Positions 1 through 18,932 of a stretch of 64,000 nt of DNA are shown in pieces. Each line of letters opens with the position of its first letter. The first letter of the stretch is position 1. The DNA comes from a virus (taxonomy: Duplodnaviria > Heunggongvirae > Uroviricota > Caudoviricetes), in IMG/VR virus record IMGVR_UViG_2851938318_000001, one strand, 5' to 3'. A program made the translations under genes and the position numbers. The notes beneath the pieces were generated by a model that made no database searches, was not told the DNA's origin, and saw only the letters and a list, made by a program, of their open reading frames with translations.

Positions 1-1056
1 ATGAGCGAAAACGGCAATAAAAACATAGCGATCGTTGAAGCATTTTCAGAAACAGATAAAAAGACAGGCGAAGTTGTTACGTTGGTTCCTAACACTAATA
101 ACACTGTTCAGCCTGTTGCTTTGATGCGTCTGGGCCTCTTCGTTCCGACGCTGAAATCGACATCCAGAGGAAGAAAGGGGCAAATGGTCTCTATGGATGC
201 CTCTGCTGAACTCAAACAGCTGTCTCTGGCAAAAGCCGAAGGGTACGAAGACATAAGGATCTCTGGCCTTCGGCTTGATATGGATAACGACTTTAAAACG
301 TGGGTGGGAATAATCCACGCGTTTGCCAAACACAAGGTCGTTGGCGATACTGTCACGTTGCCGTTCGTTGAGTTTGTAAGGCTGTGTGGCATTCCGACCG
401 CCAGGTCATCAGCGAAGTTACGCAAACGCCTGGACAGTTCGCTAAGCCGTATTGCCACAAATACCATCTCGTTCCGTAGCAAAGGCTCTGATGAGTTTTA
501 CGTAACGCATCTTGTGCAAACGGCAAAATATAGTGTCAAGCACGATACGGTCGAACTGAAAGCAGATCCCAAGATTTTCGAACTCTACCAGTTCGACAAA
601 AAGGTTCTTCTGCAACTCCGGGCTATAAACGAACTCTCAAGAAAAGAATCCGCTCAGGCGCTTTATACTTTTATTGAAAGTTTGCCGCCTGATCCGGCAC
701 CAATATCACTAGCCCGTTTACGCGCCAGACTTAATCTGACAAGTCGCACTATTACTCAGAATGCGACGGTAAGAAAGGCTATGGAACAGCTGCGAGAGAT
801 AGGATATCTCGATTACACGGAAGTTAAGCGCGGAAACTCGGTCTACTTCGTCATCCACTATAGGCGGCCAAAGTTACGCCAGGCACAAATATCAACAAAA
901 ATCGATAATGATGAGACGGAATATAGCCTCCCAGATGAGAATCAAGATGACATTATCGACGTTGTGCCTGACGAAAAAGAAGGCAAAATGGTCATGTTGA
1001 GTAAAGAAGAACTGGCGCTTCTCGAAGAGTTGCGCAAGGCAAAGACTCGCAAATAG
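1..1056 (+). CDS. repA: Plasmid/phage-plasmid replication initiator RepA (iteron-binding, P1/RepFIB-like)
   Basis: 351-aa ORF with RepA-like conserved blocks ([48 protein letters not shown]); followed directly by iteron-like repeats. Confidence 0.8.
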
Positions 1057-1101
1057 CCCAACCACTGTAGTTAGTAGTAAGGCTCACTATCCACTGTAGT
1101 G
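1057..1101. repeat. Iteron copies (reverse orientation), the second truncated by the IS629 insertion
   Basis: aaccactgtagttagta and atccactgtagtg match the reverse complement of the CTCACyrTAGTGG iteron consensus seen at 3978-4162. Confidence 0.55.
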
Positions 1102-1155
1102 TGAACCGCCCCGGAAATCCTGGAGACTAAACTCCCTGAGAAAGAGGTAAACAGG

Positions 1156-1482
1156 ATGACTAAAAATACTCGTTTTTCCCCCGAAGTCCGTCAGCGGGCG
1201 ATTCGTATGGTTCTGGAAAGTCAGGATGAATATGACTCACAGTGGGCGGCAATTTGTTCCATTGCCCCAAAGATTGGCTGTACGCCGGAGACTCTGCGTG
1301 TCTGGGTTCGCCAGCATGAGCGGGATACCGGGGGCGGTGATGGTGGGCTCACCAGCGCTGAACGTCAGCGTCTGAAAGAGCTGGAACGTGAAAATCGTGA
1401 ACTGCGCCGCAGTAACGATATCCTTCGCCAGGCTTCCGCTTATTTTGCGAAGGCGGAGTTCGACCGCCTCTGGAAAAAATGA
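1156..1482 (+). CDS. IS629 transposase OrfA (HTH)
   Basis: 108-aa [18 protein letters not shown]..., identical in all six copies. Confidence 0.85.
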
Positions 1483-2369
1483 TGCCACTGCTGGATAAGC
1501 TGCGTGAGCAGTACGGGGTCGGACCGGTATGCAGCGAACTGCATATTGCCCCGTCAACGTATTACCATTGTCAGCAACAGCGACATCATCCGGATAAACG
1601 CAGTGCCCGTGCGCAGCACGACGACTGGCTGAAGAGAGAGATACAGCGCGTATACGATGAAAATCATCAGGTGTACGGTGTGCGTAAAGTCTGGCGTCAG
1701 TTGTTACGGGAAGGAATCAGGGTGGCCAGATGTACAGTGGCACGTCTCATGGCGGTTATGGGACTTGCCGGTGTTCTCCGGGGTAAAAAGGTCCGTACGA
1801 CCATCAGCCGGAAAGCCGTTGCCGCAGGCGACCGCGTAAACCGTCAGTTCGTGGCAGAACGACCTGACCAGCTGTGGGTGGCTGATTTTACTTACGTCAG
1901 CACATGGCAGGGCTTCGTCTATGTGGCGTTTATCATTGATGTGTTTGCCGGATACATCGTGGGGTGGCGGGTCTCATCGTCTATGGAAACGACATTCGTG
2001 CTGGATGCGCTGGAGCAGGCGTTGTGGGCCCGTCGTCCGTCTGGCACCATCCATCACAGCGATAAAGGCTCTCAGTATGTGTCACTGGCCTATACGGAGC
2101 GACTAAAAGAAGCCGGATTACTGGCATCAACAGGGAGTACAGGCGACTCGTATGACAACGCGATGGCTGAGAGCATCAATGGTCTTTACAAAGCGGAGGT
2201 AATACACCGTAAGAGCTGGAAAAACCGTGCAGAAGTGGAACTGGCCACACTAACGTGGGTGGACTGGTATAACAATCGACGATTGCTGGGAAGGCTGGGC
2301 CATACTCCTCCGGCAGAAGCAGAAAAAGCTTATTATGCTTCCATCGGAAACGATGATCTGGCAGCCTGA
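1479..2369 (+). CDS. IS629 transposase OrfB (DDE domain; normally expressed as OrfAB by -1 frameshift)
   Basis: 296-aa ORF overlapping orfA end at A-run (ggaaaaaatgatg). Confidence 0.85.
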
Positions 2370-2411
2370 GTTCACAGATAAAACACTCTCCAGGAAACCC
2401 GGGGCGGTTCA

Positions 2412-2661
2412 GTGAGCCTTACTTATATCTGTAATTCGCTATCCACTATAGTGAGTATCGTTATCTGTTGATAACCACTGTAGGCAGTAGAATGCAAATA
2501 CTGAATGAAATGTTAGTGATCACTAACACTGATGAAACAAGGGCTGCGAGGTTAGTGGTCACTGGGTATCTTGGAAAATTTACTGTCTATAGTGGTTGTT
2601 GTCGCCCTCATCTTTGAGCGTATCCACTGTGGCGAGTGGATATCCACTGAAAACAGCAAAG
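2412..2661. repeat. Iteron copies in mixed orientation between the two tandem IS copies
   Basis: atccactatagtgagta, aaccactgtaggcagta, tactgtctatagtggtt, atccactgtggcgagtggat. Confidence 0.5.
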
Positions 2662-2715
2662 TGAACCGCCCCGGAAATCCTGGAGACTAAACTCCCTGAG
2701 AAAGAGGTAAACAGG

Positions 2716-3042
2716 ATGACTAAAAATACTCGTTTTTCCCCCGAAGTCCGTCAGCGGGCGATTCGTATGGTTCTGGAAAGTCAGGATGAATATGACTCAC
2801 AGTGGGCGGCAATTTGTTCCATTGCCCCAAAGATTGGCTGTACGCCGGAGACTCTGCGTGTCTGGGTTCGCCAGCATGAGCGGGATACCGGGGGCGGTGA
2901 TGGTGGGCTCACCAGCGCTGAACGTCAGCGTCTGAAAGAGCTGGAACGTGAAAATCGTGAACTGCGCCGCAGTAACGATATCCTTCGCCAGGCTTCCGCT
3001 TATTTTGCGAAGGCGGAGTTCGACCGCCTCTGGAAAAAATGA
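2716..3042 (+). CDS. IS629 transposase OrfA
   Basis: Identical 108-aa translation. Confidence 0.85.
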
Positions 3043-3929
3043 TGCCACTGCTGGATAAGCTGCGTGAGCAGTACGGGGTCGGACCGGTATGCAGCGAACT
3101 GCATATTGCCCCGTCAACGTATTACCATTGTCAGCAACAGCGACATCATCCGGATAAACGCAGTGCCCGTGCGCAGCACGACGACTGGCTGAAGAGAGAG
3201 ATACAGCGCGTATACGATGAAAATCATCAGGTGTACGGTGTGCGTAAAGTCTGGCGTCAGTTGTTACGGGAAGGAATCAGGGTGGCCAGATGTACAGTGG
3301 CACGTCTCATGGCGGTTATGGGACTTGCCGGTGTTCTCCGGGGTAAAAAGGTCCGTACGACCATCAGCCGGAAAGCCGTTGCCGCAGGCGACCGCGTAAA
3401 CCGTCAGTTCGTGGCAGAACGACCTGACCAGCTGTGGGTGGCTGATTTTACTTACGTCAGCACATGGCAGGGCTTCGTCTATGTGGCGTTTATCATTGAT
3501 GTGTTTGCCGGATACATCGTGGGGTGGCGGGTCTCATCGTCTATGGAAACGACATTCGTGCTGGATGCGCTGGAGCAGGCGTTGTGGGCCCGTCGTCCGT
3601 CTGGCACCATCCATCACAGCGATAAAGGCTCTCAGTATGTGTCACTGGCCTATACGGAGCGACTAAAAGAAGCCGGATTACTGGCATCAACAGGGAGTAC
3701 AGGCGACTCGTATGACAACGCGATGGCTGAGAGCATCAATGGTCTTTACAAAGCGGAGGTAATACACCGTAAGAGCTGGAAAAACCGTGCAGAAGTGGAA
3801 CTGGCCACACTAACGTGGGTGGACTGGTATAACAATCGACGATTGCTGGGAAGGCTGGGCCATACTCCTCCGGCAGAAGCAGAAAAAGCTTATTATGCTT
3901 CCATCGGAAACGATGATCTGGCAGCCTGA
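3039..3929 (+). CDS. IS629 transposase OrfB
   Basis: Identical 296-aa translation. Confidence 0.85.
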
Positions 3930-3971
3930 GTTCACAGATAAAACACTCTCCAGGAAACCCGGGGCGGTTCA

Positions 3972-4180
3972 AAGGCTTACTCACCATAGTGGATACCCGC
4001 TGGACATCTCACTCCAATACTCACCATAGTGGTTGTTTGATGCGAATGAAAGGCTGTCTACTCGCTACAGTGGTTAGCAGATATGTAGGAAGGTTTTGTT
4101 ACTGACTACAGTGGATAATGAGCTGGATACGAATGCGGTGAGCAGACTACTCACCGCAGTGGTTGGTGCTATTAGTGTAT
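3972..4180 (+). repeat. Iteron array: five direct repeats at about 41-bp spacing
   Basis: tactcaccatagtgg at 3978 and 4018, tactcgctacagtgg at 4059, tactgactacagtgg at 4100, tactcaccgcagtgg at 4148. Confidence 0.6.
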
Positions 4181-4384
4181 TTTCTTCAACAGACCCCAAA
4201 GTGTTCCGGCTTTTGTAGTCAGTTTTCCTGTTTCTGGATCGTACATACGCCATTCACGCCGCTGGTGGACGATATACCCATCTTCACGTTCCAGACGCTC
4301 AAGAATGCCAGGCTGCTTGAAACCCTTAGCACGCCAGTAGCCGCTTGTTTTCTCGATTTCCAGACCTGCCAGTGTTAATGCCAT
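4172..4384 (-). CDS. Hypothetical protein (70 aa)
   Basis: ORF whose start is adjacent to the stop of the upstream 111-aa gene; no recognisable domain. Confidence 0.35.
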   Translation of the reverse strand: MALTLAGLEIEKTSGYWRAKGFKQPGILERLEREDGYIVHQRREWRMYDPETGKLTTKAGTLWGLLKKIH

Positions 4385-4719
4385 TATCCAACCTCCTTGC
4401 AGTCATCGAAAAGGTAGCTTTGCTGAGAAGCGTGAACGCCATAGAAGCCCTTGTATTTGTTGTATACGAAGTGGTCTTCTCCGACGCCGGTTAATTTGCC
4501 ATTACGATTTGTGAGATATGGGGATGACAACACTCGATCGTCACGCACAACATAGAACTGGTCGCCGCTGTCTACGACCATCGCTCCATATGGTGCTTTT
4601 ATGACGTCGGTAAGAGCGCCATTCTTAACGTCGGCTACAGACATTTCACACTGATAAACAGTGGTGTCGGCCACAACGATCGAAGAAAGGAACAACAGCG
4701 CGAATGGGATGGCCTTCAT
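4384..4719 (-). CDS. Hypothetical secreted protein (111 aa, N-terminal signal peptide)
   Basis: MKAIPFALLFLSSIVVA signal-like N-terminus; start overlaps the stop of the upstream small ORF (ATGA). Confidence 0.5.
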   Translation of the reverse strand: MKAIPFALLFLSSIVVADTTVYQCEMSVADVKNGALTDVIKAPYGAMVVDSGDQFYVVRDDRVLSSPYLTNRNGKLTGVGEDHFVYNKYKGFYGVHASQQSYLFDDCKEVG

Positions 4720-4895
4720 GCTGCCACCTCTTTGATTACATCAAATGCTGAATTAAATACGAGCACGATAGCCAAAGCGTTTATGACTACGTCGTGCACC
4801 GGGGAAAAGACTTTACGAATGACACCAGTGAAAATGCAGTCGATGACAAAAGCTATTGAAACGATGAGTAACAAGTATTCAATAAAAATCTTCAT
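4716..4895 (-). CDS. Small hydrophobic protein (59 aa, below the ORF-track cutoff)
   Basis: Hand translation MKIFIEYLLLIVSIAFVIDCIFTGVIRKVFSPVHDVVINALAIVLVFNSAFDVIKEVAA; stop overlaps the next start. Confidence 0.35.
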   Translation of the reverse strand: MKIFIEYLLLIVSIAFVIDCIFTGVIRKVFSPVHDVVINALAIVLVFNSAFDVIKEVAA

Positions 4896-4934
4896 GATAG
4901 GTAGATACTAACTTATATAAATTTTACTGTAAAC

Positions 4935-5210
4935 TCACTCAAAAGTGCTGATGCTTAAAATACGCTCAAGATGTTCGGCATCTTCATCACTGATTTGTTG
5001 AGTCTCTTCTACGTACCAACAGTTGCCGTTATGCCAACAAACACCATCATCATCAACCATCACTGAATCAGCGTCATGACCTGTATATTCAACGAGAATA
5101 CGCTGGATCAGCGCGTCAGTTTCTTCGTCGTTAAGGCCATCGGCTTTGACCATAAAAAGCGGAAACACGTCATAGACAGTGCTGGTAACGATTCGAACTA
5201 AAACTCTCAT
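4935..5210 (-). CDS. Hypothetical protein (91 aa)
   Basis: ORF in the same-strand gene series; no recognisable domain. Confidence 0.4.
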   Translation of the reverse strand: MRVLVRIVTSTVYDVFPLFMVKADGLNDEETDALIQRILVEYTGHDADSVMVDDDGVCWHNGNCWYVEETQQISDEDAEHLERILSISTFE

Positions 5211-5265
5211 GTGTTTTTCCTTTTGTGGTTAGTGTTTACTTATTTTGTTAGTTATGAATAGGCGA

Positions 5266-5691
5266 TCAATCTTCTTGTTTAGGGAAAAACTGTTCAATAA
5301 CTCTGTCAACGGCTGTGTCTATATGGAGTAGATGCCACACAACCATATCTTTGCTTCCCATGCCTTGTGTGAATATCACGTCATACTTACGCCATGCGCA
5401 GTGGAACCAATATGCTGAGTCATCAATTGGTAAATCCTCTCCCGCCTCTTTGAAGTATTTCAGCAGCATTGCCTGCTCTGCCGTTGGCGTTGGACCTATT
5501 TCCTGAGCGTACATACGGATGAATCGCTGCCAGTCTGTCTCGTCGGTGGTCGGATCTGGTGGATTCATTTCGGCGATAGCGTTTCGTAGCTGATGCGCCC
5601 AATCAGGTTCAGGAAAGCCTTTTGCTGCTTCATCATCAATAACATCCAGAGCCACGTTTGCGGCATCGTAGAGTTTCTTAATAGCTGTCAT
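5266..5691 (-). CDS. Hypothetical protein (141 aa)
   Basis: ORF with AAGGA RBS 8 nt upstream, preceded by the palindromic TTTTAAACAAATTGTTTTCT motif. Confidence 0.5.
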   Translation of the reverse strand: MTAIKKLYDAANVALDVIDDEAAKGFPEPDWAHQLRNAIAEMNPPDPTTDETDWQRFIRMYAQEIGPTPTAEQAMLLKYFKEAGEDLPIDDSAYWFHCAWRKYDVIFTQGMGSKDMVVWHLLHIDTAVDRVIEQFFPKQED

Positions 5692-5740
5692 GTTTTCTTA
5701 TCCTTTTAAACAAATTGTTTTCTTAATAAGATAATTGCGA

Positions 5741-5765
5741 TAAAAAAGGCGTCCAACTGGACGCC
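5741..5765 (-). terminator. Rho-independent terminator downstream of the SPFH gene
   Basis: ggcgtcc-aact-ggacgcc stem-loop followed by a T-run on the minus strand. Confidence 0.55.
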
Positions 5766-5782
5766 TGAACTTTTTAGGGGAG

Positions 5783-6613
5783 TTATTTCACTGTAATGAA
5801 AGGAGTGTTAGCCCCTTGAGTCATGTACTGCGGTAACTGGCCATTCCATTTATTGATGGCTTCCAATTCCATAACGTTCGGGTTTTGACGCAGAGCTTCA
5901 CCGCGCAGACGAATGGCGTCTGCTTCTGCTTGCGCACGAGCACGGATAGCATCAGCTTCACCATTAGCCTGTTCACGTAGCATATTCGCCTCAGCTTTAC
6001 GTTGTTCAACTTCCTGCTGACGTTGCAGAGTACGCTGGTTAGCCGTTACTTTGGCGTTAATAGATTCAATGACAGTTTTTGGGTAATCAGGCTTTCCAAC
6101 CCATGACAGGCTCAGTACCTCAATACCAACCGGAGACATCTCTTTCTGAATATCTTTCAGTGCGTTGTCCAGCAATTGTGCCTTACCACCGTCGATAAAT
6201 GAGTCAGTGGTCATACGGCTGGCCAAACGGTTTAGAGAGTCGGCAATTTTCTGACGCAGATCTGATTCGGTGATATCGTCTACGCCTTTGCGATAGGTCT
6301 GGAACACCGTCGTTACCTTGTCACGATTAACCAGATACGCAACGCCAATTTTGTGACCAATAGCAGTACCGTCACTCATCTGGAATGTGAACGGCTCGTC
6401 GTAGGTCTTCATTTGTTTGAAGGTCGGGAATACGTAAAGTTCGGTGTTAAGACCTGTCCATTGGCGACCAACGCCAACCACTTCACCAATCCCTTTGTCT
6501 TCACCTAATTTGTTTACTTTGATGCCAACGTATCCAGGCTCCACGCGATCGCAGCCAGTAAGACCCATTGTGCAAATAGCCGCCAGAGCAACTGCAAGTA
6601 AACCTTTCTTCAT
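5783..6613 (-). CDS. SPFH/band-7 (prohibitin/HflC-like) domain lipoprotein
   Basis: Lipobox LTGC after signal peptide; SPFH-like core and C-terminal Ala/Glu/Arg coiled-coil. Confidence 0.65.
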   Translation of the reverse strand: MKKGLLAVALAAICTMGLTGCDRVEPGYVGIKVNKLGEDKGIGEVVGVGRQWTGLNTELYVFPTFKQMKTYDEPFTFQMSDGTAIGHKIGVAYLVNRDKVTTVFQTYRKGVDDITESDLRQKIADSLNRLASRMTTDSFIDGGKAQLLDNALKDIQKEMSPVGIEVLSLSWVGKPDYPKTVIESINAKVTANQRTLQRQQEVEQRKAEANMLREQANGEADAIRARAQAEADAIRLRGEALRQNPNVMELEAINKWNGQLPQYMTQGANTPFITVK

Positions 6614-6616
6614 TAC

Positions 6617-6817
6617 TTATTTCCCCTTTGCTTTGATTAATGAGTTGATAAACTTACGACCAGCAATAAGACCGATTACAGGAGCACCAAAACCAACGAT
6701 AACTCCAAACATGACGGCTAAATCACTCTTGGTAGAAATCAGCGACGGAACCAGTAAACCGTAGATGAGAGCCACTGAAAGGCCTGTGGTTACTGCCAAT
6801 AGATAGATTTTGATCAT
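6617..6817 (-). CDS. Small membrane protein (66 aa) immediately upstream of the SPFH gene
   Basis: Two predicted hydrophobic helices; 3-bp gap to SPFH start. Confidence 0.5.
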   Translation of the reverse strand: MIKIYLLAVTTGLSVALIYGLLVPSLISTKSDLAVMFGVIVGFGAPVIGLIAGRKFINSLIKAKGK

Positions 6818-6879
6818 GTGTTTTCCTATGTGGTTGTTATGCGAAAATAATAAGTAAGTACTTATATATTTTCAAGAGA

Positions 6880-6907
6880 TAAAAAAGGCGTCCTGTGGAC
6901 GCCTTGT
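6880..6907 (-). terminator. Rho-independent terminator downstream of the recA-like C-terminal fragment
   Basis: aaggcgtcc-tgtg-ggacgcctt stem-loop followed by a T-run on the minus strand. Confidence 0.55.
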
Positions 6908-6909
6908 GT

Positions 6910-7620
6910 TTACTCTTCTACTGACTCGGTGGGATTGTCTTTTGATCTCCGGTCGTCGATTGCCTGTAAAGCCGCAATGATTTCAGCTAGTGGCTTCTCC
7001 CGATACATCTCGACGATCTGTGATTTGGTGTATTTCTTGTCACCAATTTCTACGCGCCCGCTGGCGTTCTTTGGCAGGTATCCTTCATCCAGCATGTACT
7101 CGACGAGCGATTCGATAACGTCGAGGCCACGAGTAGGATCGAAGTAGAATTTCCAGGTGCACTTGCCATACGGTGGTGCAACTTTGTTTTTGATGCACTC
7201 TGCGCCTACGTCCTGACCGATCTTCTCTTTACCATCCTTCATCACCGATGCACCAAGACGGATACGTACAGAAGCGTAGAACTTCGGTGAATCTCCACCT
7301 GGCGACGTAGTAGGGTCGCCAAACATTACACCGATTTTTGTGCGAACCTGATTCAAGAAGATGATGCAGGCGTTGTATTTGCGTGCCCACAAAGCCAGAG
7401 TAGGGAAGTTCGCACTCGTCGCACGAGCCAGTGCCGTATTGTCGTTCATGTTTAGCTGATCTTTGTCTTTGGCAGTGCCTTCAGCCATCTTTTCGAACTT
7501 CTCGGCTTTGGAGTTCGGAACCATAGACGCAAGAGAGTCAGCCACGATACAGATAGGTGCTGATTCGGGGATAAGCTCTTCATCACGAACCAATTTAAGT
7601 ATTGTGCCGATCAACTCTAC
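6910..7620 (-). pseudogene. RecA-like recombinase, C-terminal fragment (interrupted by IS629 copy 3)
   Basis: Translation VELIGTILK...CIVADSLASM...NACIIFLNQVRTKIGVMFGDPTTSPGG...KFYASVRIRL matches RecA core motifs; ORF runs to the IS boundary. Confidence 0.75.
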
Positions 7621-7674
7621 TGAACCGCCCCGGAAATCCTGGAGACTAAACTCCCTGAGAAAGAGGTAAACAGG

Positions 7675-8001
7675 ATGACTAAAAATACTCGTTTTTCCCC
7701 CGAAGTCCGTCAGCGGGCGATTCGTATGGTTCTGGAAAGTCAGGATGAATATGACTCACAGTGGGCGGCAATTTGTTCCATTGCCCCAAAGATTGGCTGT
7801 ACGCCGGAGACTCTGCGTGTCTGGGTTCGCCAGCATGAGCGGGATACCGGGGGCGGTGATGGTGGGCTCACCAGCGCTGAACGTCAGCGTCTGAAAGAGC
7901 TGGAACGTGAAAATCGTGAACTGCGCCGCAGTAACGATATCCTTCGCCAGGCTTCCGCTTATTTTGCGAAGGCGGAGTTCGACCGCCTCTGGAAAAAATG
8001 A
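7675..8001 (+). CDS. IS629 transposase OrfA
   Basis: Identical 108-aa translation. Confidence 0.85.
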
Positions 8002-8888
8002 TGCCACTGCTGGATAAGCTGCGTGAGCAGTACGGGGTCGGACCGGTATGCAGCGAACTGCATATTGCCCCGTCAACGTATTACCATTGTCAGCAACAGC
8101 GACATCATCCGGATAAACGCAGTGCCCGTGCGCAGCACGACGACTGGCTGAAGAGAGAGATACAGCGCGTATACGATGAAAATCATCAGGTGTACGGTGT
8201 GCGTAAAGTCTGGCGTCAGTTGTTACGGGAAGGAATCAGGGTGGCCAGATGTACAGTGGCACGTCTCATGGCGGTTATGGGACTTGCCGGTGTTCTCCGG
8301 GGTAAAAAGGTCCGTACGACCATCAGCCGGAAAGCCGTTGCCGCAGGCGACCGCGTAAACCGTCAGTTCGTGGCAGAACGACCTGACCAGCTGTGGGTGG
8401 CTGATTTTACTTACGTCAGCACATGGCAGGGCTTCGTCTATGTGGCGTTTATCATTGATGTGTTTGCCGGATACATCGTGGGGTGGCGGGTCTCATCGTC
8501 TATGGAAACGACATTCGTGCTGGATGCGCTGGAGCAGGCGTTGTGGGCCCGTCGTCCGTCTGGCACCATCCATCACAGCGATAAAGGCTCTCAGTATGTG
8601 TCACTGGCCTATACGGAGCGACTAAAAGAAGCCGGATTACTGGCATCAACAGGGAGTACAGGCGACTCGTATGACAACGCGATGGCTGAGAGCATCAATG
8701 GTCTTTACAAAGCGGAGGTAATACACCGTAAGAGCTGGAAAAACCGTGCAGAAGTGGAACTGGCCACACTAACGTGGGTGGACTGGTATAACAATCGACG
8801 ATTGCTGGGAAGGCTGGGCCATACTCCTCCGGCAGAAGCAGAAAAAGCTTATTATGCTTCCATCGGAAACGATGATCTGGCAGCCTGA
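7998..8888 (+). CDS. IS629 transposase OrfB
   Basis: Identical 296-aa translation. Confidence 0.85.
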
Positions 8889-8930
8889 GTTCACAGATAA
8901 AACACTCTCCAGGAAACCCGGGGCGGTTCA

Positions 8931-11900
8931 ACTGATGGTTCGAACTGACTTCTCACTTGGGGAGTCGGCTCTAAAAGCAGAAAACGCGGTGAAGATTGCC
9001 AGAGAAGCTGGCTACACCGCTGTAATTTCAGCAGATAGCATGAATATTGCGAGCGTTATTCCACTACAACGTGCCGCTGGTGACGACATGGCGGTTATTT
9101 GTGGTGTGAAACTAAACATTGTTGATGATCCCACATACGAGCACCGGGCTAAACTTGCTAAAGAATCTATGAGATGTATGGAATCATTAGAGCGGGGACG
9201 TAACTACTCGTTTACCGCTCTAATTAAAAATGAGCAAGGATATCGCGACATCTGCGAACTAATGACGGCGGCCAACACACGAGAACAGTTCTACTTTGTA
9301 CCGCGTCTCTCGCTCGAACAGTTGGTTTCTACATATGCCAAAGGCAACATCATCCTGCTTACTTCCGACATCGGTAGCGTGTTCCAACGCAACGATTTTG
9401 CAAAAATCATAAGCACACTGATTACAGCGGGTGGAAAAGACAACTTCTATAGTGTGGTTTATCCGCACCCTACCCCATTCTACGACCAGATTAACGTCCG
9501 GGCGATGAAAGTCGCCAGCGCATTGAAAATAGAGCCAGTGGCGTTCTATCCCGCTTATTACGAATCGATCGACGATGCAGACATTAAAGACATTGCGCAC
9601 ATGGTTACGAACAACATCAAAATCGACCAGCCGCATCGTCTGCGTATCCCCCACCAGCGAGATAACGCCGTCAATGGTCGCCGCCATCTCCTTGAGGCGC
9701 TTAAAGCCTTCTCCGTTCGCATGGATGTGCCGGTAACAGCTGCAATGGCCTCAACAACGCAGGATACCATTATCGATGCCTGCACATGGCGCTGGCATGA
9801 ATTGCCGCCAGCACTGCCAAAGATGGCAGACGACGAGCCTGCAACGCTTATGAAACTGGCTGTTGCAGGGCTGCGTAAACGTCTTACCACAAAAGAGTTT
9901 GGCTACACACCACCTGCTTCTGAGAACAGGGTTTATGTTGAGCGGCTAAAGTACGAAATGGACACGCTGACTCGCCTGGGATTTTGTGGTTACTTCCTGA
10001 TGGTACGCGATCTGATGAATCATAGTCGTGAAACTGGCATTCCCGTTGGGCCTGGTCGTGGTTCCTCTGCCGGTTCTCTGGTGGCGTGGTGCATAGGCAT
10101 AACCAACGTCGACCCAATCCGTCACGGTCTTCTGTTTGAGCGTTTCATCAACCCTGAGCGTCTCGACTTGCCGGATGCGGACTTGGACTTCAGCCAGGCA
10201 CGTCGCCATGAGGTGATCGAGTATCTGAATGAACGCTACGGCGAAGATTACGTTGCGGGTATTCCGAACTTCACCTACCTGGGCGCAGCCTCTGCACTAC
10301 GTGATACCGCTCGTATTTATGGTGTGGAGTCCGCAGATATGGCGGTATCAAAAGAACTGAAGAACGTCGAGGATGATAGCCTTCCATTGGAAGAGCTGCG
10401 CGAACAACTGGCAAGTCTCGACAAATACGCAACAAAATATCCTGATGCATTCAATGCAGCCTGCAAGTTACAAAGCCTTATGCGTGGCTTTGGTAGACAT
10501 GCGGCAGGGATGATCGTAGCAGGTGTTCCTCTGACAGAACGTACACCGGTTGAGCGCCGTGGTGACGCGCGTTGTATCGCATTTGACAAGCGTTACTGCG
10601 AGGCTATGGGCCTAATTAAGCTGGACGTGCTTGGCCTGGCAACTCTCGATTTGCTCGATAGTGCAAAACGCTACATAAAAGAGAACACAGGTGAAGATAT
10701 CAATCTTGATGCCATTTCTCTTGAAGATCGCAAGGTGCTGGATGGTTTTGCTGCTGGGTACACTCAAGGTGTTTTCCAGCTTGAATCAGGCCCAATGCGC
10801 AAGCTGCTTAAAGATTTAGGTGGTGGAATTGAGCCAATGAGCTTTAAAACGGTCGTCGCTACAACTGCGCTCTTCCGGCCGGGGCCAATTCAATCAGGCA
10901 TGTTGGATGACTATGTTTCTGTCGCCAAAGGCTTTATGACGCCGGAATCATTACACCCCGTTCTTGATGAACTTACCGCGGAAACAAATGGCGTGATTCT
11001 CTATCAGGAACAGACGATGAACGCGACTCGATTGCTTGCCGGCTTCACAATGGCTGAAGCTGACGCTGTGCGTTCCGCAATCGGTAAGAAGAACATGGAA
11101 AAAATGAAGAGCATGGGCGAGAAGTTTATCGTTCAGGCTCAAGCTGGCTGGATAGACGTTGAGCTGGAAGATGGCACTACACAGCGCATTCACCGTGCGG
11201 AACATTTTAAATGCGAAGACGGAACTCTGAAAACTGTCGAAGAGGCACTTGAGCACGGCGCAAAACTACCTATAAACGCAGTACGCGTTACAGCGTCACA
11301 TCCAGGGCTATCAGAGATGAAAGCGAAGGAGATCTGGACCGCATTTGAGAAAAACGGAGCCTATCAGTTCAATAAATCACACTCCGTTGCTTATTCTTTA
11401 ATCAGTTATCAGTCTATGTGGCTAAAGACGCACTACCCTGCTGAGTTCTTCGCAGCTGCGCTCACCATTCTGGGCGAGGATAAGCATCAGGGGCTGGTGA
11501 AGGATGCGCTGACCTATGGCATTCGCGTATTGCCACCAGACGTTAATGTGTCATCTAACCGAATTGAGATCCGCACACTCGAAGACGGCAGTCAGGCACT
11601 GTATGCGCCATTCTCTGCTGTGAAAGGCTGTTCTGAAAATGGTTGTCAGGCAATTATGCGTGCGCGTGAGAAAGTTGGTGGCAAATTCGAGTCAGTGGCA
11701 CAATTCGATGAAGCGGTCGAGAAGCGTGCATGTAACAGTCGTGTACGCGAGTCGCTTCATAAAGTAGGGGCTTTTGCGTCAATTGAGCCAGGCAGTCTGC
11801 CAGCAACTGATCCTGAACGACTGCGCGACCAGGCTGAGCTGATGGGCAATCTCATCATTGACGCTGTTAAAGCATCACGTCCGTTCGAAATGAATCCTAA

Positions 11901-12441
11901 GCGTTCTGCCGAAATCAACGTACTCATGACACGTATGGCGGCTGAAATGGGCTTGGGTGAGGAGTTGATACGCCCGACTATTGGTATTAAACCCAAAATC
12001 ATGATCATTCTGGACAATGCGAACGGCAATGACGCTCGTACCGGCTACTTCATGGAGAACGGATACGACGACTTTAAGGCAAAACTACTGACAGTTGGAG
12101 ATCTGCGCATGGGCGATCTTTATGTCACGGGTGTTTGTAAGAAGGTTAAGGACAAAGAGAAAGACTATACCAAAGACGAGATAGGCCAGTTCACAGACTT
12201 TATGCGGGAAGAAATTAATCTTGTACGACCAACCTACATTTTGACGTGTGGTAGTCGTTCAACCGCACTATTTAACAATAAGAGTAAACCATCAGATCTG
12301 ATTGGTCGTAAGGAGTACTTCCCAGAGCTTGATGCAACCGTCTTCTACGGATTTAACCCGAATATCCTGTACTTCCGACCGGAAGAAGGAGAGCGACTGG
12401 AGGCCATTCTGGCTGATATCGCGGAGACAATAAATAAGTAA
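8931..12441 (+). CDS. dnaE: DNA polymerase III alpha subunit (DnaE-like), separated from its native start codon by IS629
   Basis: PHP-like N-terminus and Pol III alpha signature GPGRGSSAGSLVAWCIGITNVDPIRHGLLFERFINPERLDLPDADLDF; ORF-track start at 8854 is IS-derived, first in-frame ATG after the IS at 8935. Confidence 0.8.
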
Positions 12442-12446
12442 TAAAG

Positions 12447-12470
12447 AAAACCCGCCTGTTGGCGGGTTTA
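12447..12470. terminator. Bidirectional rho-independent terminator
   Basis: cccgcc-tgtt-ggcggg stem with A-run before and T-run after. Confidence 0.5.
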
Positions 12471-12744
12471 TAAAGAATTATGGCGCTTGTTGAGGAAGTC
12501 ACTCCTCTTACGCACTTTGTTTTGCCATGCCGGCAGTTAGCTTCTGCCTTTGACTATTCATGCGGCAACCCCGCATTTCGCCACAATGGGCAATTCACTT
12601 TTATGGAATAAACTGGCCGTTGTGTCGATTTAATTAGCATGGCCTTACCATGCTAATTTATTCAACTTGTACAATCCTACAAATCTATCCACTCAGGCTT
12701 ACACCGTCTTCGTTATTGTAGAAATGAGGATCATCAGCGTTGAA

Positions 12745-12960
12745 TCAGCTTAGAGCAACGACATTTGCTGCTGCTGGGCCTTTAGCCCCATTCTCGATAG
12801 AGAATTCGACCTGCTGGCCTTCTTCCAAAGTGCGGAAATTATTACTCTGAATTGCCGAAAAATGTACAAAAACATCTTTACTGCCATCAGCAGGAGAAAT
12901 AAAGCCAAAGCCTTTATCAGAGTTAAACCATTTTACTAAACCAGTCATTTTATTAGACAT
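12745..12960 (-). CDS. Cold-shock protein, CspA family
   Basis: [23 protein letters not shown]...VFVHFSAIQ matches the CSD RNP motifs; ORF-track ORF extends upstream, true start taken at MSNKMTG. Confidence 0.8.
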
Positions 12961-13289
12961 AGATATTACCTTCTTAATTTTGTGAGCCACATAGTGCGGC
13001 GAGAATTTGATCTGTATAGATTGGGACTTACTTAGGCACTTAAGGAGGAGACTCACGAAGAAGGGAAATCAGAAGATAACACTGAACTGAGACTGCTTTA
13101 CTAAAACTGCTTACATAAGGTCTGTCTTGCAAACCAACGATGCTATTAACGCATACCCCTTCTTTTCATGCAACCTTTATTTTTCAAAGATAACTAATTT
13201 TTGTCACCATTGGTTTAGTAAACGTTAACGAACCAGACGATGCCAGACACCTTTACAGAGAACAGATGCCCGCCAATTGGCGGGCATCA

Positions 13290-13853
13290 TTATGCACATT
13301 TCGCAATATCTTTGCGGCGTTTAATCAGTTTCTCCGCAATTTGCTCTATTTCGTTGAAATCTTTCGAGACGCTGTTTCGAAGCGCCAGATTCCATTTACT
13401 CAAAGTTCGGGCATTTTGGACAATTTGATCGCCCTCTTTAAGTCGTCCGTTATTCATGAGCCATTCAGCCACATCAGCCCAATCCCAGAGAGGAGACTGG
13501 CCTTTTATGCGTTGTACAGGGCAAGGGAAGTCGCCGCTTCCGCGCTTACCGTCTTTGAGCAACGCCACTGCCTGGCGAGACAGGTCTGTCAGTTCCGCGA
13601 TATCGCTTAAGCCCACAAGAGCCGAGTCGACGGATTCAACAATTGCACCGATACCGGCTGATTCAATATTGTCGACCGCAGATGCGATAGCTGCATCAAG
13701 TGATTGTGCTTCGCGGTCAAATTCTACATAGACGGAGTTTCCATATGCGCAAATTAGCGCATCGTCACAGCCGTTTTGGTACAGCGCGTCTTCCAGTCCT
13801 TCCGTCTCATACGATACGCCTGAGAGCGTCAGAGTGAAGTTATAAAGCGCCAT
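13290..13853 (-). CDS. Putative DNA-binding protein with C-terminal HTH (possible HicB-like antitoxin)
   Basis: HTH-like segment LSDIAELTDLSRQAVALLKDG; second gene of an operon behind a palindromic operator/promoter. Confidence 0.4.
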   Translation of the reverse strand: MALYNFTLTLSGVSYETEGLEDALYQNGCDDALICAYGNSVYVEFDREAQSLDAAIASAVDNIESAGIGAIVESVDSALVGLSDIAELTDLSRQAVALLKDGKRGSGDFPCPVQRIKGQSPLWDWADVAEWLMNNGRLKEGDQIVQNARTLSKWNLALRNSVSKDFNEIEQIAEKLIKRRKDIAKCA

Positions 13854-13913
13854 AGTTTTCCTTTGAAGATAGTTGGACAGTTTCTGCAAAAGGCGGCTAA
13901 TGCCGCCTTGAAA

Positions 13914-14138
13914 TCATTTACAACGATCAACCATTCGTTTGATCTGTTTGGCATGGTTTTCGGGATTACCCGGAGTCGACCATACGCTCATTTGGTGAGT
14001 TTTGTGTTCACCTTCTGGATTACCGCATCGCAGTCTGCAAAAACAATGTGCAGCACCACCAGCTGCTACCCAGATCCAGCCTTTACTTAATGCATAGTCA
14101 ATGGCTGCTTGAATATGCTTATTCGGATGTTGCTTCAT
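13914..14138 (-). CDS. Small protein (74 aa), possible toxin partner
   Basis: First gene behind a sigma70-like promoter overlapped by a palindrome; GGAGG RBS; size and gene order fit HicA-first operons but sequence is not diagnostic. Confidence 0.35.
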   Translation of the reverse strand: MKQHPNKHIQAAIDYALSKGWIWVAAGGAAHCFCRLRCGNPEGEHKTHQMSVWSTPGNPENHAKQIKRMVDRCK

Positions 14139-14149
14139 TCGCCTCCGAT

Positions 14150-14190
14150 AATAGTATTCTATTCACAGTGTTGACATCTGTCAACGGCGA
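14150..14190 (-). promoter_or_regulatory. Sigma70-like promoter with overlapping palindromic operator
   Basis: Minus-strand TTGACA (14179-14184), 17-bp spacer, TAGAAT (14156-14161); palindrome gttgaca-tc-tgtcaac at 14170-14185. Confidence 0.45.
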
Positions 14191-14350
14191 CTGAATTTCA
14201 TCCGTTCATGCCACACCCCCATCCATCTCATGTATGTGACCTAAAGATGGTCAGCACAGCTTACCAAAATAAGACAACTAATTATCTTCGGTGATCTCAA
14301 TATTTTCCCCTGAACAAAGTTGACATGACGCCATAAACCCGTTCTCTGTT

Positions 14351-14359
14351 TGATATAAT
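14351..14359 (+). promoter_or_regulatory. Extended -10 promoter element (TGaTATAAT) upstream of the UvsY-like gene
   Basis: tgatataat about 34 bp upstream of the GTG start at 14393; no good -35. Confidence 0.3.
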
Positions 14360-14392
14360 TGATACAGATTTTATAAGTAGGAACCTATTAGA

Positions 14393-14824
14393 GTGAACAC
14401 TGATATTTTTTCTAAAATCATGGCCGATCTGGAGTTCGACCGCGACAACCTTGAGGAAGTATGGCGTAAACAGCCACGGCTTTTAATGGAGTATGGGTCA
14501 AAACTAGCGCAGGCAGATCGAGATGTCGCAGAGGCAAAACTTAACCTTGAAGCTGTTGAAGCAAAGCTATACGACACAGAGCGTAAGAACTTGAGTATGA
14601 ACGGCATTAAGTTCAACGAGTCTGTACTGGACGCTAAGGTTAAAACAAACCCACAGTATCTGTCTAAACGGCAGAAGTTGGATGAAGCACGGCACATCGC
14701 AGACATATACAAACATGCTGTCGCCGCCTTTTCGCATCGCCGAGACATGATCGTTCAGGCGTCAAAGATGGCCATCGTTGAATTAGAGCGATTAGGCTCT
14801 GAACGCTTTATTACTCCCCGTTGA
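14393..14824 (+). CDS. Putative recombination mediator (UvsY-like), hypothetical
   Basis: 143-aa helical protein starting at GTG; sits directly upstream of the gp32-like SSB and RecA-like genes as in T4-type recombination modules; weak similarity only. Confidence 0.4.
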   Translation: MNTDIFSKIMADLEFDRDNLEEVWRKQPRLLMEYGSKLAQADRDVAEAKLNLEAVEAKLYDTERKNLSMNGIKFNESVLDAKVKTNPQYLSKRQKLDEARHIADIYKHAVAAFSHRRDMIVQASKMAIVELERLGSERFITPR

Positions 14825-14941
14825 TTTTTGATAGATAATAAGTAAGTACTGATCTATCATTTAACAGCTCGAAAGAGCCACGAATGAACGAAAGCCCAAC
14901 GCGCATAGCGCCATCGGCCAAATCACAACAAGGAGAAACAC

Positions 14942-15982
14942 ATGTCTAAGACATTACTTGATTTGCTTAACAAAACTCGTGAAGACATTGCCGCCAAACG
15001 TGGCAACAACGTTGATCTGACTCGCTTAAAAGACGGCGTCAACTATATCCGCATCTTCCCGAATAAAGACGACCCAAACGGTAAGTTCTTCCAGACTTTC
15101 GGTATGCACTACGTTAAGTATCAGAACGAGGAAGGTAAAGAAGCAACCAACGCTTATATTTGTGAGCAACATACTCACGGTCGCGCTTGTCAGCTATGCG
15201 AAATGGTTATGGAAGGTCGCGCTCGTCACAAGGGTAACAAAGCAATGGAAGAACGCATCGGTCAAATGCGTGCCACTCCTCGCTACCTGGTCAACGGCAT
15301 TCTTTCTGCTCGTGAGGATTTCGCAGATGCTGAGAAATGCCAGTTAATCGAGCTGCCGTCTACTGTATTCGATGATATCTGCAAAGCAATCACCGAAGAC
15401 ATCGCTGATGATATCGGCAATCCACTGAGCAAAGAGGAAGGCTACGCATTCCTGATTAAACGTACTGGCTCTGGTCGCGATACCAAATATGACGTCTCGC
15501 CTAAGCGTAAAGTCTACAAAGGCGATATCGAAGATAAATTCTGGAACACCCAGCATGATCTGATCGCATACGCAAATCAGGCTGATGAAACTCGTCTTCT
15601 GTCGACAGTTCGCACTATGGGTCGTCTGATTGGCATCGCTGCACCAACTGCCGCAGCATCTGCACCAGCATCTGCACCAGCAATTTCCTCAACCGCGAAA
15701 ACATCGGCTGCGGCACTACCTGGATTTGGCTCTGTCACTGGTCATACAGAAGGAGCGACGGCTGTAGCAACCGCGCACACACCGGCTTCTGAACCAACCA
15801 GTCTGGTTGATGAAGAAATCCTCCGTGCCGTTGAAACTGAATTTAAACCAGAAGCAAGTTCCGCTGCCGTTGCCGTATCAGTCAAAGAGTCTGAAGCAGT
15901 CGCAGCGACATCTGTAGCAGCCGCATCTGCGACGGAAGATGAAGGTCTGGATGACCTACTGAGAGAGCTGGACTCTCTGTAA
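14942..15982 (+). CDS. Single-stranded DNA-binding protein, T4 gp32-like
   Basis: IRIFPNKDDPNGKFFQTFGMHY core, Cys/His cluster C-x3-H-x-H...C-x2-C, acidic C-terminal tail DEGLDDLLRELDSL; AAGGAG RBS. Confidence 0.6.
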   Translation: MSKTLLDLLNKTREDIAAKRGNNVDLTRLKDGVNYIRIFPNKDDPNGKFFQTFGMHYVKYQNEEGKEATNAYICEQHTHGRACQLCEMVMEGRARHKGNKAMEERIGQMRATPRYLVNGILSAREDFADAEKCQLIELPSTVFDDICKAITEDIADDIGNPLSKEEGYAFLIKRTGSGRDTKYDVSPKRKVYKGDIEDKFWNTQHDLIAYANQADETRLLSTVRTMGRLIGIAAPTAAASAPASAPAISSTAKTSAAALPGFGSVTGHTEGATAVATAHTPASEPTSLVDEEILRAVETEFKPEASSAAVAVSVKESEAVAATSVAAASATEDEGLDDLLRELDSL

Positions 15983-15998
15983 TCCCATTACGTGACCA

Positions 15999-16027
15999 GT
16001 AAGGCGTCTACGGACGCCTTACTTTTT
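15999..16027 (+). terminator. Rho-independent terminator after the SSB gene
   Basis: taaggcgtc-tacg-gacgcctta stem followed by cttttt. Confidence 0.6.
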
Positions 16028-16042
16028 GGAAGGAATGTACCG

Positions 16043-16987
16043 GTGAATTATCTCTTCGTAGATGGCAATAGCCTGGGTTATTACCACCAACAATCTGACA
16101 AATTGCACAACGGCGAAATGGAAGTACAGGCTGCTTTCGGCTTTGTTAAGAACGTCCGTCGTTATGCCTCCATCCTCCATGCCCGACCTATGATTCTTTG
16201 GGATGGATTTAGTGACAAGCGTCGCGACTTTTACCCGGACTACAAAGCAAATCGCGACGACGATCCTGATATGAAAAAGATGAAGGAAGGCTTTGCTATC
16301 CAGAAGCCATACATCCTCAAAATGATGACCGCGCTTGGAGTTACCCAACTCATTGCAAAAGATGCAGAAGCGGATGATCTGGCCGGGCTGCTGGTATCCC
16401 GCATGGCACCGCAGCCAACCGTTGAACACATCTATCTGTTAACAGGCGATAGCGACTGGCTTCAGTTAGTTCGTGAAAACGTAAGCTGGGTAAGCCTGCG
16501 TGAAGACGCCAAAAACAAGCAGGTTAATTTTGAGCAATTTGCGGAGCTGACAGGATTCGCCACGCCTCGCGCATTTTTGGAAGCAAAAGCATTACAAGGC
16601 GATAACTCGGACAACATTAGCGGTGTTGGTGGCATTGGTGCTGGCGGTGCGAAAGAGCTGCTGCATGAATGGGGAAGTGTCGCAACGATGGTACGCGGCA
16701 TCAACGACGGCTCAATCGTGGTTAATAAAGGGCGTCATAAGACCGCCTTCAACAAACTAGCGAAGAATGCCTTCAACGAGAAAACAGGCTGTCGAATGCT
16801 CGAAGCGTTCAAGAGAAACATCACGCTAATGAACCTGATTGAGACGAAGTTTCCGCCTACCGAAATCGAAACAATCAAAGGCAATCGTGACGTGAAAGCA
16901 TTCGAGCAACTGTGCTACGAGCTGAATTTCCGTTCGTTCCTTGAAGACCTTGAAGTGTTTGTTCTTCCATTCGAAAGGTATTGCTAA
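16043..16987 (+). CDS. 5'-3' exonuclease / flap endonuclease (PIN/FEN family)
   Basis: LFVDGNSLGYYH, GDSDWLQLV and GDNSDNISGVGGIG motifs; start placed at GTG 16043 after the terminator, with GGAAGG RBS. Confidence 0.7.
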   Translation: MNYLFVDGNSLGYYHQQSDKLHNGEMEVQAAFGFVKNVRRYASILHARPMILWDGFSDKRRDFYPDYKANRDDDPDMKKMKEGFAIQKPYILKMMTALGVTQLIAKDAEADDLAGLLVSRMAPQPTVEHIYLLTGDSDWLQLVRENVSWVSLREDAKNKQVNFEQFAELTGFATPRAFLEAKALQGDNSDNISGVGGIGAGGAKELLHEWGSVATMVRGINDGSIVVNKGRHKTAFNKLAKNAFNEKTGCRMLEAFKRNITLMNLIETKFPPTEIETIKGNRDVKAFEQLCYELNFRSFLEDLEVFVLPFERYC

Positions 16988-17253
16988 TGCTTAAATCGAT
17001 TATCAATGGCGCTACAACCACCCCTGCCCAACTGGCAAAAGAGATTGTCTTTTATCACGGTGAGTACGCTGTCATCGCACTGCCGTCAATTCTAGGCGCT
17101 GCCGGAATGAAAGCGACAGATCGCGAGTTTGGATTAGTCAGCGAGCAGGTCGTAAAAATCCTCGCTCGTGTATCCAGACTCCTTAACCACGATGCGATTG
17201 TATTCGATGAATCCGCCGCTTTAAAACGAATCAACGAAACAAAAGGAGCCTGA
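16981..17253 (+). CDS. Hypothetical protein (90 aa)
   Basis: ORF between exonuclease and recA-like fragment; no recognisable domain. Confidence 0.35.
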   Translation: MLMLKSIINGATTTPAQLAKEIVFYHGEYAVIALPSILGAAGMKATDREFGLVSEQVVKILARVSRLLNHDAIVFDESAALKRINETKGA

Positions 17254-17255
17254 TC

Positions 17256-17622
17256 ATGGCAAAAGGAAAATCCGCACTGGCACTTGCTCTGAAAAAGAAA
17301 ATCGGTAGCAACGACGAAATTCAGAAAGTAACTCATTGGATTGATACAGGCTTTCCACCGTTAAACAAAGCTATTTCTGGTCGTTACGATGGCGGCTTCC
17401 CATGTGGTCGTATCGTCGAAGTATTCGGTCCTCCAAGTGCAGGGAAAACGTTCCTTGCAACAGCAGCGATGATCTCCGCTCAAAAACAAGATGGTCTGGC
17501 GGTATTCCTCGATCATGAAAACAGTTTTGACGTTGGCCTGGCTGTCGCCAATGGCCTGAACGCAGATGAGGATGACGGTCAGTGGGTATACAAGCAGCCA
17601 GATACCTTCGAAGACTCTGTAG
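17256..17622 (+). pseudogene. RecA-like recombinase, N-terminal fragment (interrupted by IS629 copy 4)
   Basis: MAKGKS...GRIVEVFGPPSAGKT (Walker A)...QPDTFEDSV, ending at the IS boundary; joins in frame with 6910-7620. Confidence 0.75.
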
Positions 17623-17664
17623 TGAACCGCCCCGGGTTTCCTGGAGAGTGTTTTATCTGTGAAC

Positions 17665-18555
17665 TCAGGCTGCCAGATCATCGTTTCCGATGGAAGCATA
17701 ATAAGCTTTTTCTGCTTCTGCCGGAGGAGTATGGCCCAGCCTTCCCAGCAATCGTCGATTGTTATACCAGTCCACCCACGTTAGTGTGGCCAGTTCCACT
17801 TCTGCACGGTTTTTCCAGCTCTTACGGTGTATTACCTCCGCTTTGTAAAGACCATTGATGCTCTCAGCCATCGCGTTGTCATACGAGTCGCCTGTACTCC
17901 CTGTTGATGCCAGTAATCCGGCTTCTTTTAGTCGCTCCGTATAGGCCAGTGACACATACTGAGAGCCTTTATCGCTGTGATGGATGGTGCCAGACGGACG
18001 ACGGGCCCACAACGCCTGCTCCAGCGCATCCAGCACGAATGTCGTTTCCATAGACGATGAGACCCGCCACCCCACGATGTATCCGGCAAACACATCAATG
18101 ATAAACGCCACATAGACGAAGCCCTGCCATGTGCTGACGTAAGTAAAATCAGCCACCCACAGCTGGTCAGGTCGTTCTGCCACGAACTGACGGTTTACGC
18201 GGTCGCCTGCGGCAACGGCTTTCCGGCTGATGGTCGTACGGACCTTTTTACCCCGGAGAACACCGGCAAGTCCCATAACCGCCATGAGACGTGCCACTGT
18301 ACATCTGGCCACCCTGATTCCTTCCCGTAACAACTGACGCCAGACTTTACGCACACCGTACACCTGATGATTTTCATCGTATACGCGCTGTATCTCTCTC
18401 TTCAGCCAGTCGTCGTGCTGCGCACGGGCACTGCGTTTATCCGGATGATGTCGCTGTTGCTGACAATGGTAATACGTTGACGGGGCAATATGCAGTTCGC
18501 TGCATACCGGTCCGACCCCGTACTGCTCACGCAGCTTATCCAGCAGTGGCATCAT
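17665..18555 (-). CDS. IS629 transposase OrfB
   Basis: Identical 296-aa translation. Confidence 0.85.
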
Positions 18556-18878: not shown

Positions 18879-18932
18879 CCTGTTTACCTCTTTCTCAGGG
18901 AGTTTAGTCTCCAGGATTTCCGGGGCGGTTCA

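Follow-up and report, generated by a model that had tools for sequence, protein, structure and literature searches.

We analyzed the first 64 kb of a plasmid recorded as IMG/VR virus IMGVR_UViG_2851938318_000001 (64,000 nucleotides, a stretch that opens at the ATG of the replication initiator gene repA and is called the window hereafter). Within it, two copies of the insertion sequence (IS) IS629 interrupt an array of iterons, the short repeats that follow repA. By its sequence, the window belongs to an SSU5-family phage-plasmid of the pLF82/phage Cyrano type with a RepFIB-family replicon. Very probably, this phage-plasmid has been colonized by IS629, two of the insertions fell in a non-essential downstream control array, and the replicon still runs with its copy-number control relaxed slightly at most.

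Two independent IS629 insertions downstream of repA

The evidence for two separate events comes from what remains when the elements are taken out. With copies 1 and 2 each removed together with one of its target duplications, the window is collinear with pLF82, the plasmid of Escherichia coli LF82 that has also been deposited as phage Cyrano, at 1770 of 1774 positions and without any insertion or deletion. Specifically, the 250-bp segment between the two copies agrees with pLF82 at 250 of 251 positions and shows 100% identity to the closest relative, pRM9131-1 (NZ_CP028430.1), a plasmid of E. coli RM9131 (cattle, California) with 99.998-100% identity over long shared backbone blocks. Since each copy has its own 3-bp duplication at both flanks (GTG for copy 1, AAG for copy 2) and the pLF82 sequence is restored upon removal, the two are simple, independent insertions into native DNA, that is, two separate IS629 transpositions into a non-coding array of ~490 bp. 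The initial annotation had described two tandem IS629 copies in the same orientation with these duplications, and this description holds: both lie on the + strand and are 100% identical (Table 1).

The order of the two events can also be read. Among complete E. coli genomes, the left junction of copy 2 is common only to pRM9131-1, where it lies at the same base, and pRM9131-1 lacks copy 1. Because pRM9131-1 shares copy 2 only, copy 2 is the older insertion, and copy 1 came later and is unique to the lineage of the window.

Two identical repeats only 250 bp apart are assembled from short reads with difficulty, and the tandem pair could in principle be an assembly artefact or, alternatively, a composite transposon (IS629-cargo-IS629) that arrived as one unit. 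Both ideas are so improbable that we rule them out. The copies carry matching duplications of their own (GTG/GTG and AAG/AAG), the outer flanks of the pair (GTG versus AAG) differ and so provide no shared outer duplication, and the supposed cargo is the plasmid's own array sequence at its original position. Further, an independent closed assembly, that of pRM9131-1, has copy 2 alone at the same base.

The window holds six copies, each of 1310 bp and 100% identical to one another, with 25-nt imperfect terminal inverted repeats (88% complementary) and two overlapping genes in different frames, orfA (108 amino acids) and orfB (296 amino acids). Target duplications are seen directly as GTG, AAG, ATT and TAC, and as CTAC and AGT once an inversion between copies 3 and 4 is undone. 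The name rests on annotated database copies rather than on an ISfinder reference sequence: the record of pRM9131-1 describes its identical copy as [quoted passage not shown], with a pseudoknot, that of AP024476.1 describes its copy (100.0%, as rounded by the tool) as "IS629 transposase OrfB", and many other records hold copies at 99.7-100% annotated as "IS1203 family transposase". Length, inverted repeats, reading frames, duplications and near-identity all fit IS629/IS1203 of the IS3 family.

Interruption of this array is rare among relatives. In PLSDB, the homologous array is contiguous in 331 of 337 plasmids, leaving at most six interrupted, and the spacing in these IS-free relatives, a comparison that the initial annotation had proposed, differs from that in the window. 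Among complete E. coli genomes, the pLF82-type array is contiguous in 89 plasmids, and pRM9131-1 is the one plasmid that has an IS junction in common with the window. Among the longest contigs, a RepA look-up gave only IS-free contexts. The copy-1 junction had no match in PLSDB, 5,426 complete E. coli genomes, IMG/VR or the GTDB representative genomes, and the open reading frame (ORF) that spans the junction had none in an exact-protein look-up. A promoter and terminator scan of positions 900-4500 found no excess of sites over shuffled sequence and gives no basis for a claim on read-through from repA into IS629. Within the searches made, the insertion site had thus not been catalogued before, while the kind of event, an IS entering a probably non-essential plasmid control region, is ordinary. 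The lesion itself is probably recent and mild.

One potential explanation for two hits in one array is that IS629 prefers it as a target, either through DNA bent or paired by RepA or through a sequence preference, such that clustering would reflect targeting and not tolerance. Two of the six insertions do fall within about 490 bp of ~56 kb of IS-free sequence, which has a chance of about 1e-3 under uniform insertion if the interval is specified beforehand, and (G)CTTACT lies 2-4 nt to the right of the duplication at both sites. However, the interval was picked after seeing the data, and some pair of six insertions falls within 250 bp with a chance of about 0.13. Only two independent events are involved, as pRM9131-1 holds copy 2 by descent, and no more than six of the 337 related PLSDB plasmids lack a contiguous array. 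Further, the two insertions differ in their position relative to their iterons, and copy 5 also lies in a large intergenic gap, which fits survival at harmless sites. With two events only, the shared (G)CTTACT was rejected as a target motif and not counted as evidence. We therefore regard targeting as improbable. The array is one of few non-coding gaps of ~500 bp in a densely coding plasmid, and no more than the persistence of insertions where they do no harm is needed to account for the clustering.

The interrupted iterons and their replicon

The repeats were defined by the pattern CCACTRYRGNRAG with at most one mismatch (the core can also be written CCACTRYRGnRAG). This pattern has 12 matches in the 64 kb, where 2.4 are expected, and none of 100 shuffles reached 12. 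Eleven of the 12, designated D1-D11, fall in 1062-4162, downstream of repA. They are distributed as the initial annotation had stated, with two before copy 1, four between the copies and five direct repeats (40-48 bp spacing) after copy 2; its placement of copy 1 within an iteron (D2) and of copy 2 just before one (D7, which is intact) proved equally accurate. The single consensus given there captured real repeats while merging two orientations: D1-D4 and D6 are on the + strand, whereas D5 and D7-D11 are on the - strand. D7-D11, at spacings of 40, 41, 41 and 48 bp, are thus direct repeats among themselves and inverted relative to D1-D4.

The damage is confined to a single site. We scored iterons with a position-weight matrix built from the 21 iterons of an IS-free relative, which separates those 21 from the rest of that plasmid and was applied with leave-one-out scoring. 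By this measure, D2 drops from 19.9 to 12.4 bits upon insertion of copy 1, below the range of the 21 accepted iterons (17.9-28.6 bits), and it is the only damaged iteron, with 10 of 11 intact. Spacing is affected more widely. The distance from D2 to D3 grows from 39 to 1352 bp and that from D6 to D7 from 55 to 1368 bp, leaving an array of three blocks (D1 with the damaged D2, D3-D6, and D7-D11), the second and third of which are pushed 1.3 and 2.6 kb further from the origin.

Table 1. Positions of repA, the IS629 copies and the downstream iterons in the window
Feature	Position	Strand	Remarks
repA	1-1056	+	351 amino acids, intact; Rep_3 (WH1+WH2) predicted iteron-binding initiator, RepFIB family
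IS629 copy 1	1102-2411	+	1310 bp; target duplication GTG at 1099-1101 and 2412-2414; orfA 1156-1482, orfB 1479-2369
IS629 copy 2	2662-3971	+	1310 bp; target duplication AAG at 2659-2661 and 3972-3974
IS629 copy 3	7621-8930	+	splits intein-free recA-like gene
IS629 copy 4	17623-18932	-	partner of copy 3 in inversion
IS629 copy 5	39580-40889	+	target duplication ATT; intergenic gap ahead of DUF1778/GNAT toxin-antitoxin pair
IS629 copy 6	51531-52840	-	target duplication TAC; splits gpJ/TipJ-like tail-tip gene
Iteron D1	1062-1074	+	13-nt core, intact; conserved in SSU5
Iteron D2	1091-1103	+	11-nt core CCACTGTAGTG kept; 3' half replaced by IS629 left end
Iteron D3	2443-2455	+	intact
Iteron D4	2475-2487	+	intact
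Iteron D5	2583-2595	-	intact
Iteron D6	2624-2636	+	intact
Iteron D7	3980-3992	-	adjoins copy 2; unchanged over all 22 nt
Iteron D8	4020-4032	-	intact
Iteron D9	4061-4073	-	intact
Iteron D10	4102-4114	-	intact
Iteron D11	4150-4162	-	intact

Conservation sets these repeats apart from their surroundings. Between SSU5 and pLF82, the iteron cores are kept at the same places while the spacers diverge (83% mean column identity across the downstream array), and SSU5 has 14 downstream units against 11 through additional inserts of about 40 bp. Array lengths among the 337 PLSDB relatives fall into steps of 531, 569, 609, 650, 692 and 774 bp, and the number of units is therefore naturally variable. Taken together with their match statistics, this supports the downstream repeats being a genuine, conserved iteron family of a Rep_3/RepFIB-type RepA, to which RepA is predicted to bind.

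Further features of this region were observed in passing. The steps in PLSDB array length have the appearance of evolution by gain and loss of iteron units of ~40 bp. A 36-nt block in the D4-D5 gap (2538-2573) is identical in SSU5 despite diverged flanking spacers, while a perfect 16-nt palindrome with a central GATC (GTTAGTGATCACTAAC, 2512-2527) is not conserved there. An iteron-like site, CCACTATAGGCGG, lies within the repA coding region at 855-867 and is kept at the same position in SSU5.

The initiator places the replicon in the RepFIB family. RepA scored above the Pfam cut-offs for Rep3_N (42.2 bits, cut-off 22.4) and Rep3_C (22.6 bits, cut-off 21.1), while sequence searches of NCBIfam and PDB with RepA gave no match. 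Together with the next 45 bp, repA is 100% identical to that of pLF82/phage Cyrano, and it shows 85% nucleotide identity to SSU5. At the protein level, RepA is about 91% identical to the RepA of the Yersinia pestis pMT1 type and 61-65% identical, over 81-94% of the protein, to the initiators of IncFIB-typed E. coli and Salmonella plasmids, including pO157. PLSDB types both pRM9131-1 and pLF82 as IncFIB only. The iterons are related as well: that of the pO157 RepFIB replicon, ATAAGCTGTAGTCAGTAA, and that of the window have CTGTAGTnAGTA in common, and the layout in pO157 is alike, with direct iterons upstream of rep and mostly inverted ones downstream. The IncpKPHS1 plasmid replicon was also considered for comparison and dropped, being a different replicon.

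The wider backbone agrees with this placement. Nearly all of the IS-free sequence of the window can be aligned to pLF82, at 94-100% identity apart from one 116-bp piece at 88.8%; the IS copies, one inversion and a few segments that have been replaced are the exceptions. The annotations of pLF82 and pRM9131-1 include tail, capsid, terminase, DnaB-like, primase and DnaE genes. Cyrano is a working phage-plasmid that forms virions, is induced by ciprofloxacin and is present at 5.5 plasmid copies per chromosome (PMC9928086).

Presumed origin and control array, and expected effect on copy number

Since the window begins at the repA ATG, the region upstream of repA could be observed in relatives only. 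In pRM9131-1, Cyrano and SSU5, this region (~600 bp) is origin-like and contains two iteron clusters phased at 21 bp, one of about five iterons from -540 to -454 and one from -159 to -53 that extends up to the presumed repA promoter, together with TTATCCACA DnaA boxes, an AT-rich stretch and GATC clusters. This is how a classical RepFIB origin is laid out, and the arrangement also resembles the oriR of phage P1. Given an origin-like region upstream in the relatives, the array noted after repA is the downstream one of two sets. For FIB replicons, the origin has been linked to the iterons upstream of rep, and control to the downstream iterons E-K; in those of pO157 and F, the downstream set reduces copy number and causes incompatibility, in trans as well, and the downstream block alone displaces the replicon in trans, whereas the upstream block does not (PMC11983097). 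By its position, the interrupted array of the window probably corresponds to iterons E-K, a control set and not the origin. It also appears analogous to incA of P1 and incC of F. Hence, the idea that initiation depends on this array is not supported.

The initial annotation had raised the possibility that this replicon is no longer the functional one. A dead RepA replicon, with the plasmid kept by another, could be suggested by the interruption of the iteron array and by the phage-type DnaB-like helicase, primase, DnaE and ligase that the plasmid encodes. However, repA is undamaged and matches that of working relatives exactly, and pRM9131-1, the nearest relative, retains an intact upstream origin. 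Annotation gives pRM9131-1 and pLF82 one plasmid rep gene each and no second, both are typed as a single replicon, and the window stretches that lack a match in pLF82 are non-rep genes in pRM9131-1 (encoding a toxin, a tetratricopeptide-repeat protein, a GIY-YIG protein and hypotheticals). The phage dnaE, moreover, itself carries an IS at its 5' end. With repA and the origin of the nearest relative intact and no other rep gene annotated in either relative, we rule this reading out as having scarcely any probability.

How the insertions would act can be proposed from the behavior of related replicons. RepA bound to the downstream iterons would pair (handcuff), either in cis or in trans, with the RepA that occupies the origin iterons, and this pairing would limit initiation, making the downstream set a non-essential negative control. 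The insertion of copy 2 and later of copy 1, both in the ~490-bp array, spared 10 of the 11 sites and moved nine of them 1.3-2.6 kb further off. The RepA replicon would continue to drive replication, copy number rising modestly if at all, and the effect could be larger in pRM9131-1. Little effect is expected because control iterons act by RepA-mediated pairing, which also operates in trans in the homologous system. A copy-number change in the window plasmid is nevertheless possible.

The closest relative offers a natural case of a more drastic lesion. pRM9131-1 shares with the window the copy-2 junction and the sites of copies 3-6, and it differs in an extra IS629 in a 5'-3' exonuclease gene and in the arrangement of segments. 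It lacks the sequence corresponding to window 3972-7620 (3.6 kb), which holds the five distal iterons, a cra-like gene, small genes, an SPFH gene and part of recA, and no iteron matches lie to the right of its copy-2 IS. This deletion is consistent with the product expected from recombination between same-orientation IS629 elements, namely, copies 2 and 3 of the window. Despite it, pRM9131-1, which retains repA, D1-D6 and the two upstream clusters, persists as a closed plasmid of 117 kb in which no other rep gene is annotated. It offers the strongest sign so far that maintenance may not require the distal half of the array.

Several points weigh against a replicon that runs with its control barely relaxed. 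From the existence of pRM9131-1 it does not follow that this plasmid has a normal copy number or is normally stable, and the integrity of the origin in the window plasmid is taken from a near-identical relative, its own upstream region lying outside the window. For the downstream set, an inhibitory role is assumed from homologues with 61-65% identity, and the binding of RepA is deduced from sequence. Finally, D2 is clearly weakened and proximity in cis may matter for handcuffing, such that an effect on copy number is possible.

A stronger alternative, which we consider unlikely, is that the insertions materially weaken negative control and give a copy number clearly above that of IS-free relatives, maybe under selection for gene dosage or for the stability of a phage-plasmid that no longer spreads, with the pRM9131-1 deletion as a further step. 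The fall of D2 below every accepted iteron, the displacement of 9 of the 11 control sites from the origin and the outright loss of five control iterons in the sister lineage would all fit, as would the inhibitory nature of the downstream iterons in FIB replicons (PMC11983097). Further, the phage side is damaged, the tail-tip gene being split, so vertical maintenance is what counts. On the other side, 10 of 11 iterons are undamaged, and since the control iterons of the homologous system can act in trans, a displacement of 1-3 kb should matter little. The number of units in natural relatives ranges from about 11 to over 14. Both events are explained equally well as neutral insertions, the array being among the few large non-coding gaps.

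A more elaborate version is rather speculative, and we hold it to be very unlikely. Here, IS629 would be dismantling a copy-number brake stepwise, by insertion, second insertion and IS-IS deletion as in pRM9131-1, with each step raising copy number or changing incompatibility in a phage-broken lineage. In a variant, the IS629-flanked 250-bp segment with its four iterons would move as a unit, planting RepA-binding incompatibility sites on other replicons.

IS629-driven decay and comparison with known systems

Beyond the array, IS629 has rearranged and interrupted the phage backbone. The 8.7 kb at 8931-17622, between copies 3 (+) and 4 (-), are inverted relative to pLF82 5022-14954. As they stand, these two copies lack matching duplications, and exchanging their inner flanks restores CTAC and AGT, as expected for an inversion by recombination between inverted copies. 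One of the ancestral insertions lay 8-10 nt within the 5' end of the phage dnaE gene (DNA polymerase III alpha), and an ORF of 1195 amino acids (8854-12441, +) now begins inside the right end of copy 3 and runs into dnaE. The recA-like gene (6910-7620 and 17451-17622) is split by IS629. Its allele is free of the LAGLIDADG intein found at pLF82 5194-6462, which is likewise absent from loci L012 and L018. The tail-tip gene split by copy 6 is annotated as incomplete in pRM9131-1. As a phage, the element has probably lost its competence, and it appears to be decaying under IS629 expansion, and its host is probably Shiga-toxigenic or cattle-associated.

Elsewhere, a 3.8-kb piece of this kind of phage-plasmid was seen within a 5.57-Mb chromosome record (CP043541.1; L016 4959-8741), between an OapA/ytfB-like gene and purH. 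It contains the origin region, repA, the downstream array and three small genes, and could be an integrated mini-replicon or a misassembly.

By itself, the finding is a further case of IS629 expansion reshaping a mobile element and matters little. Its broader use lies in a natural allelic series, from the split array of the window through the distal loss in pRM9131-1 to ~330 intact relatives, that bears on copy control by downstream iterons in SSU5-type phage-plasmids. It also carries a caution for annotation, in that the repeats after repA in the RepFIB-type replicon family are probably not the origin.

Relative to its own family (pLF82/Cyrano, SSU5, pHCM2 and Y. pestis pMT1), the window plasmid shares the backbone and the positions of the iterons. 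Their array, however, is uninterrupted, whereas the 64 kb of the window carry six IS629 copies and an inversion of 8.7 kb, and both the recA-like gene and the tail-tip gene are split. The RepFIB replicons of F-like plasmids (P307, pO157 and F), in which rep lies between upstream iterons BCDD' (origin) and downstream iterons E-K (control), have a homologous initiator, a related iteron, upstream direct iterons with a DnaA box and an AT-rich region, and a mostly inverted downstream array. They differ in the 5' half of the iteron (ATCCAC versus ATAAGC), and the family of the window plasmid has two upstream iteron clusters and 11-14 downstream units. Further, those replicons belong to conjugative plasmids, whereas the replicon here sits in a phage-plasmid, where the control role of the downstream array is assigned by analogy.

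Phage P1 is likewise a phage-plasmid with the same order: its oriR, which holds five phased iterons along with DnaA boxes and GATC repeats, is followed by repA and this in turn by a dispensable incA of nine iterons, the deletion of which raises copy number. The likeness is a functional analogy; the RepA of the window is of the Rep_3 type, and the iteron sequences are unrelated. The insertions do not differ in kind from the IS629/IS1203 expansion of Shiga-toxin-producing E. coli, with its 1310-bp elements, orfA/orfB frameshift, 3-4 bp duplications, many identical copies, and IS-mediated inversions and deletions, to which the window adds a further set of insertion sites.

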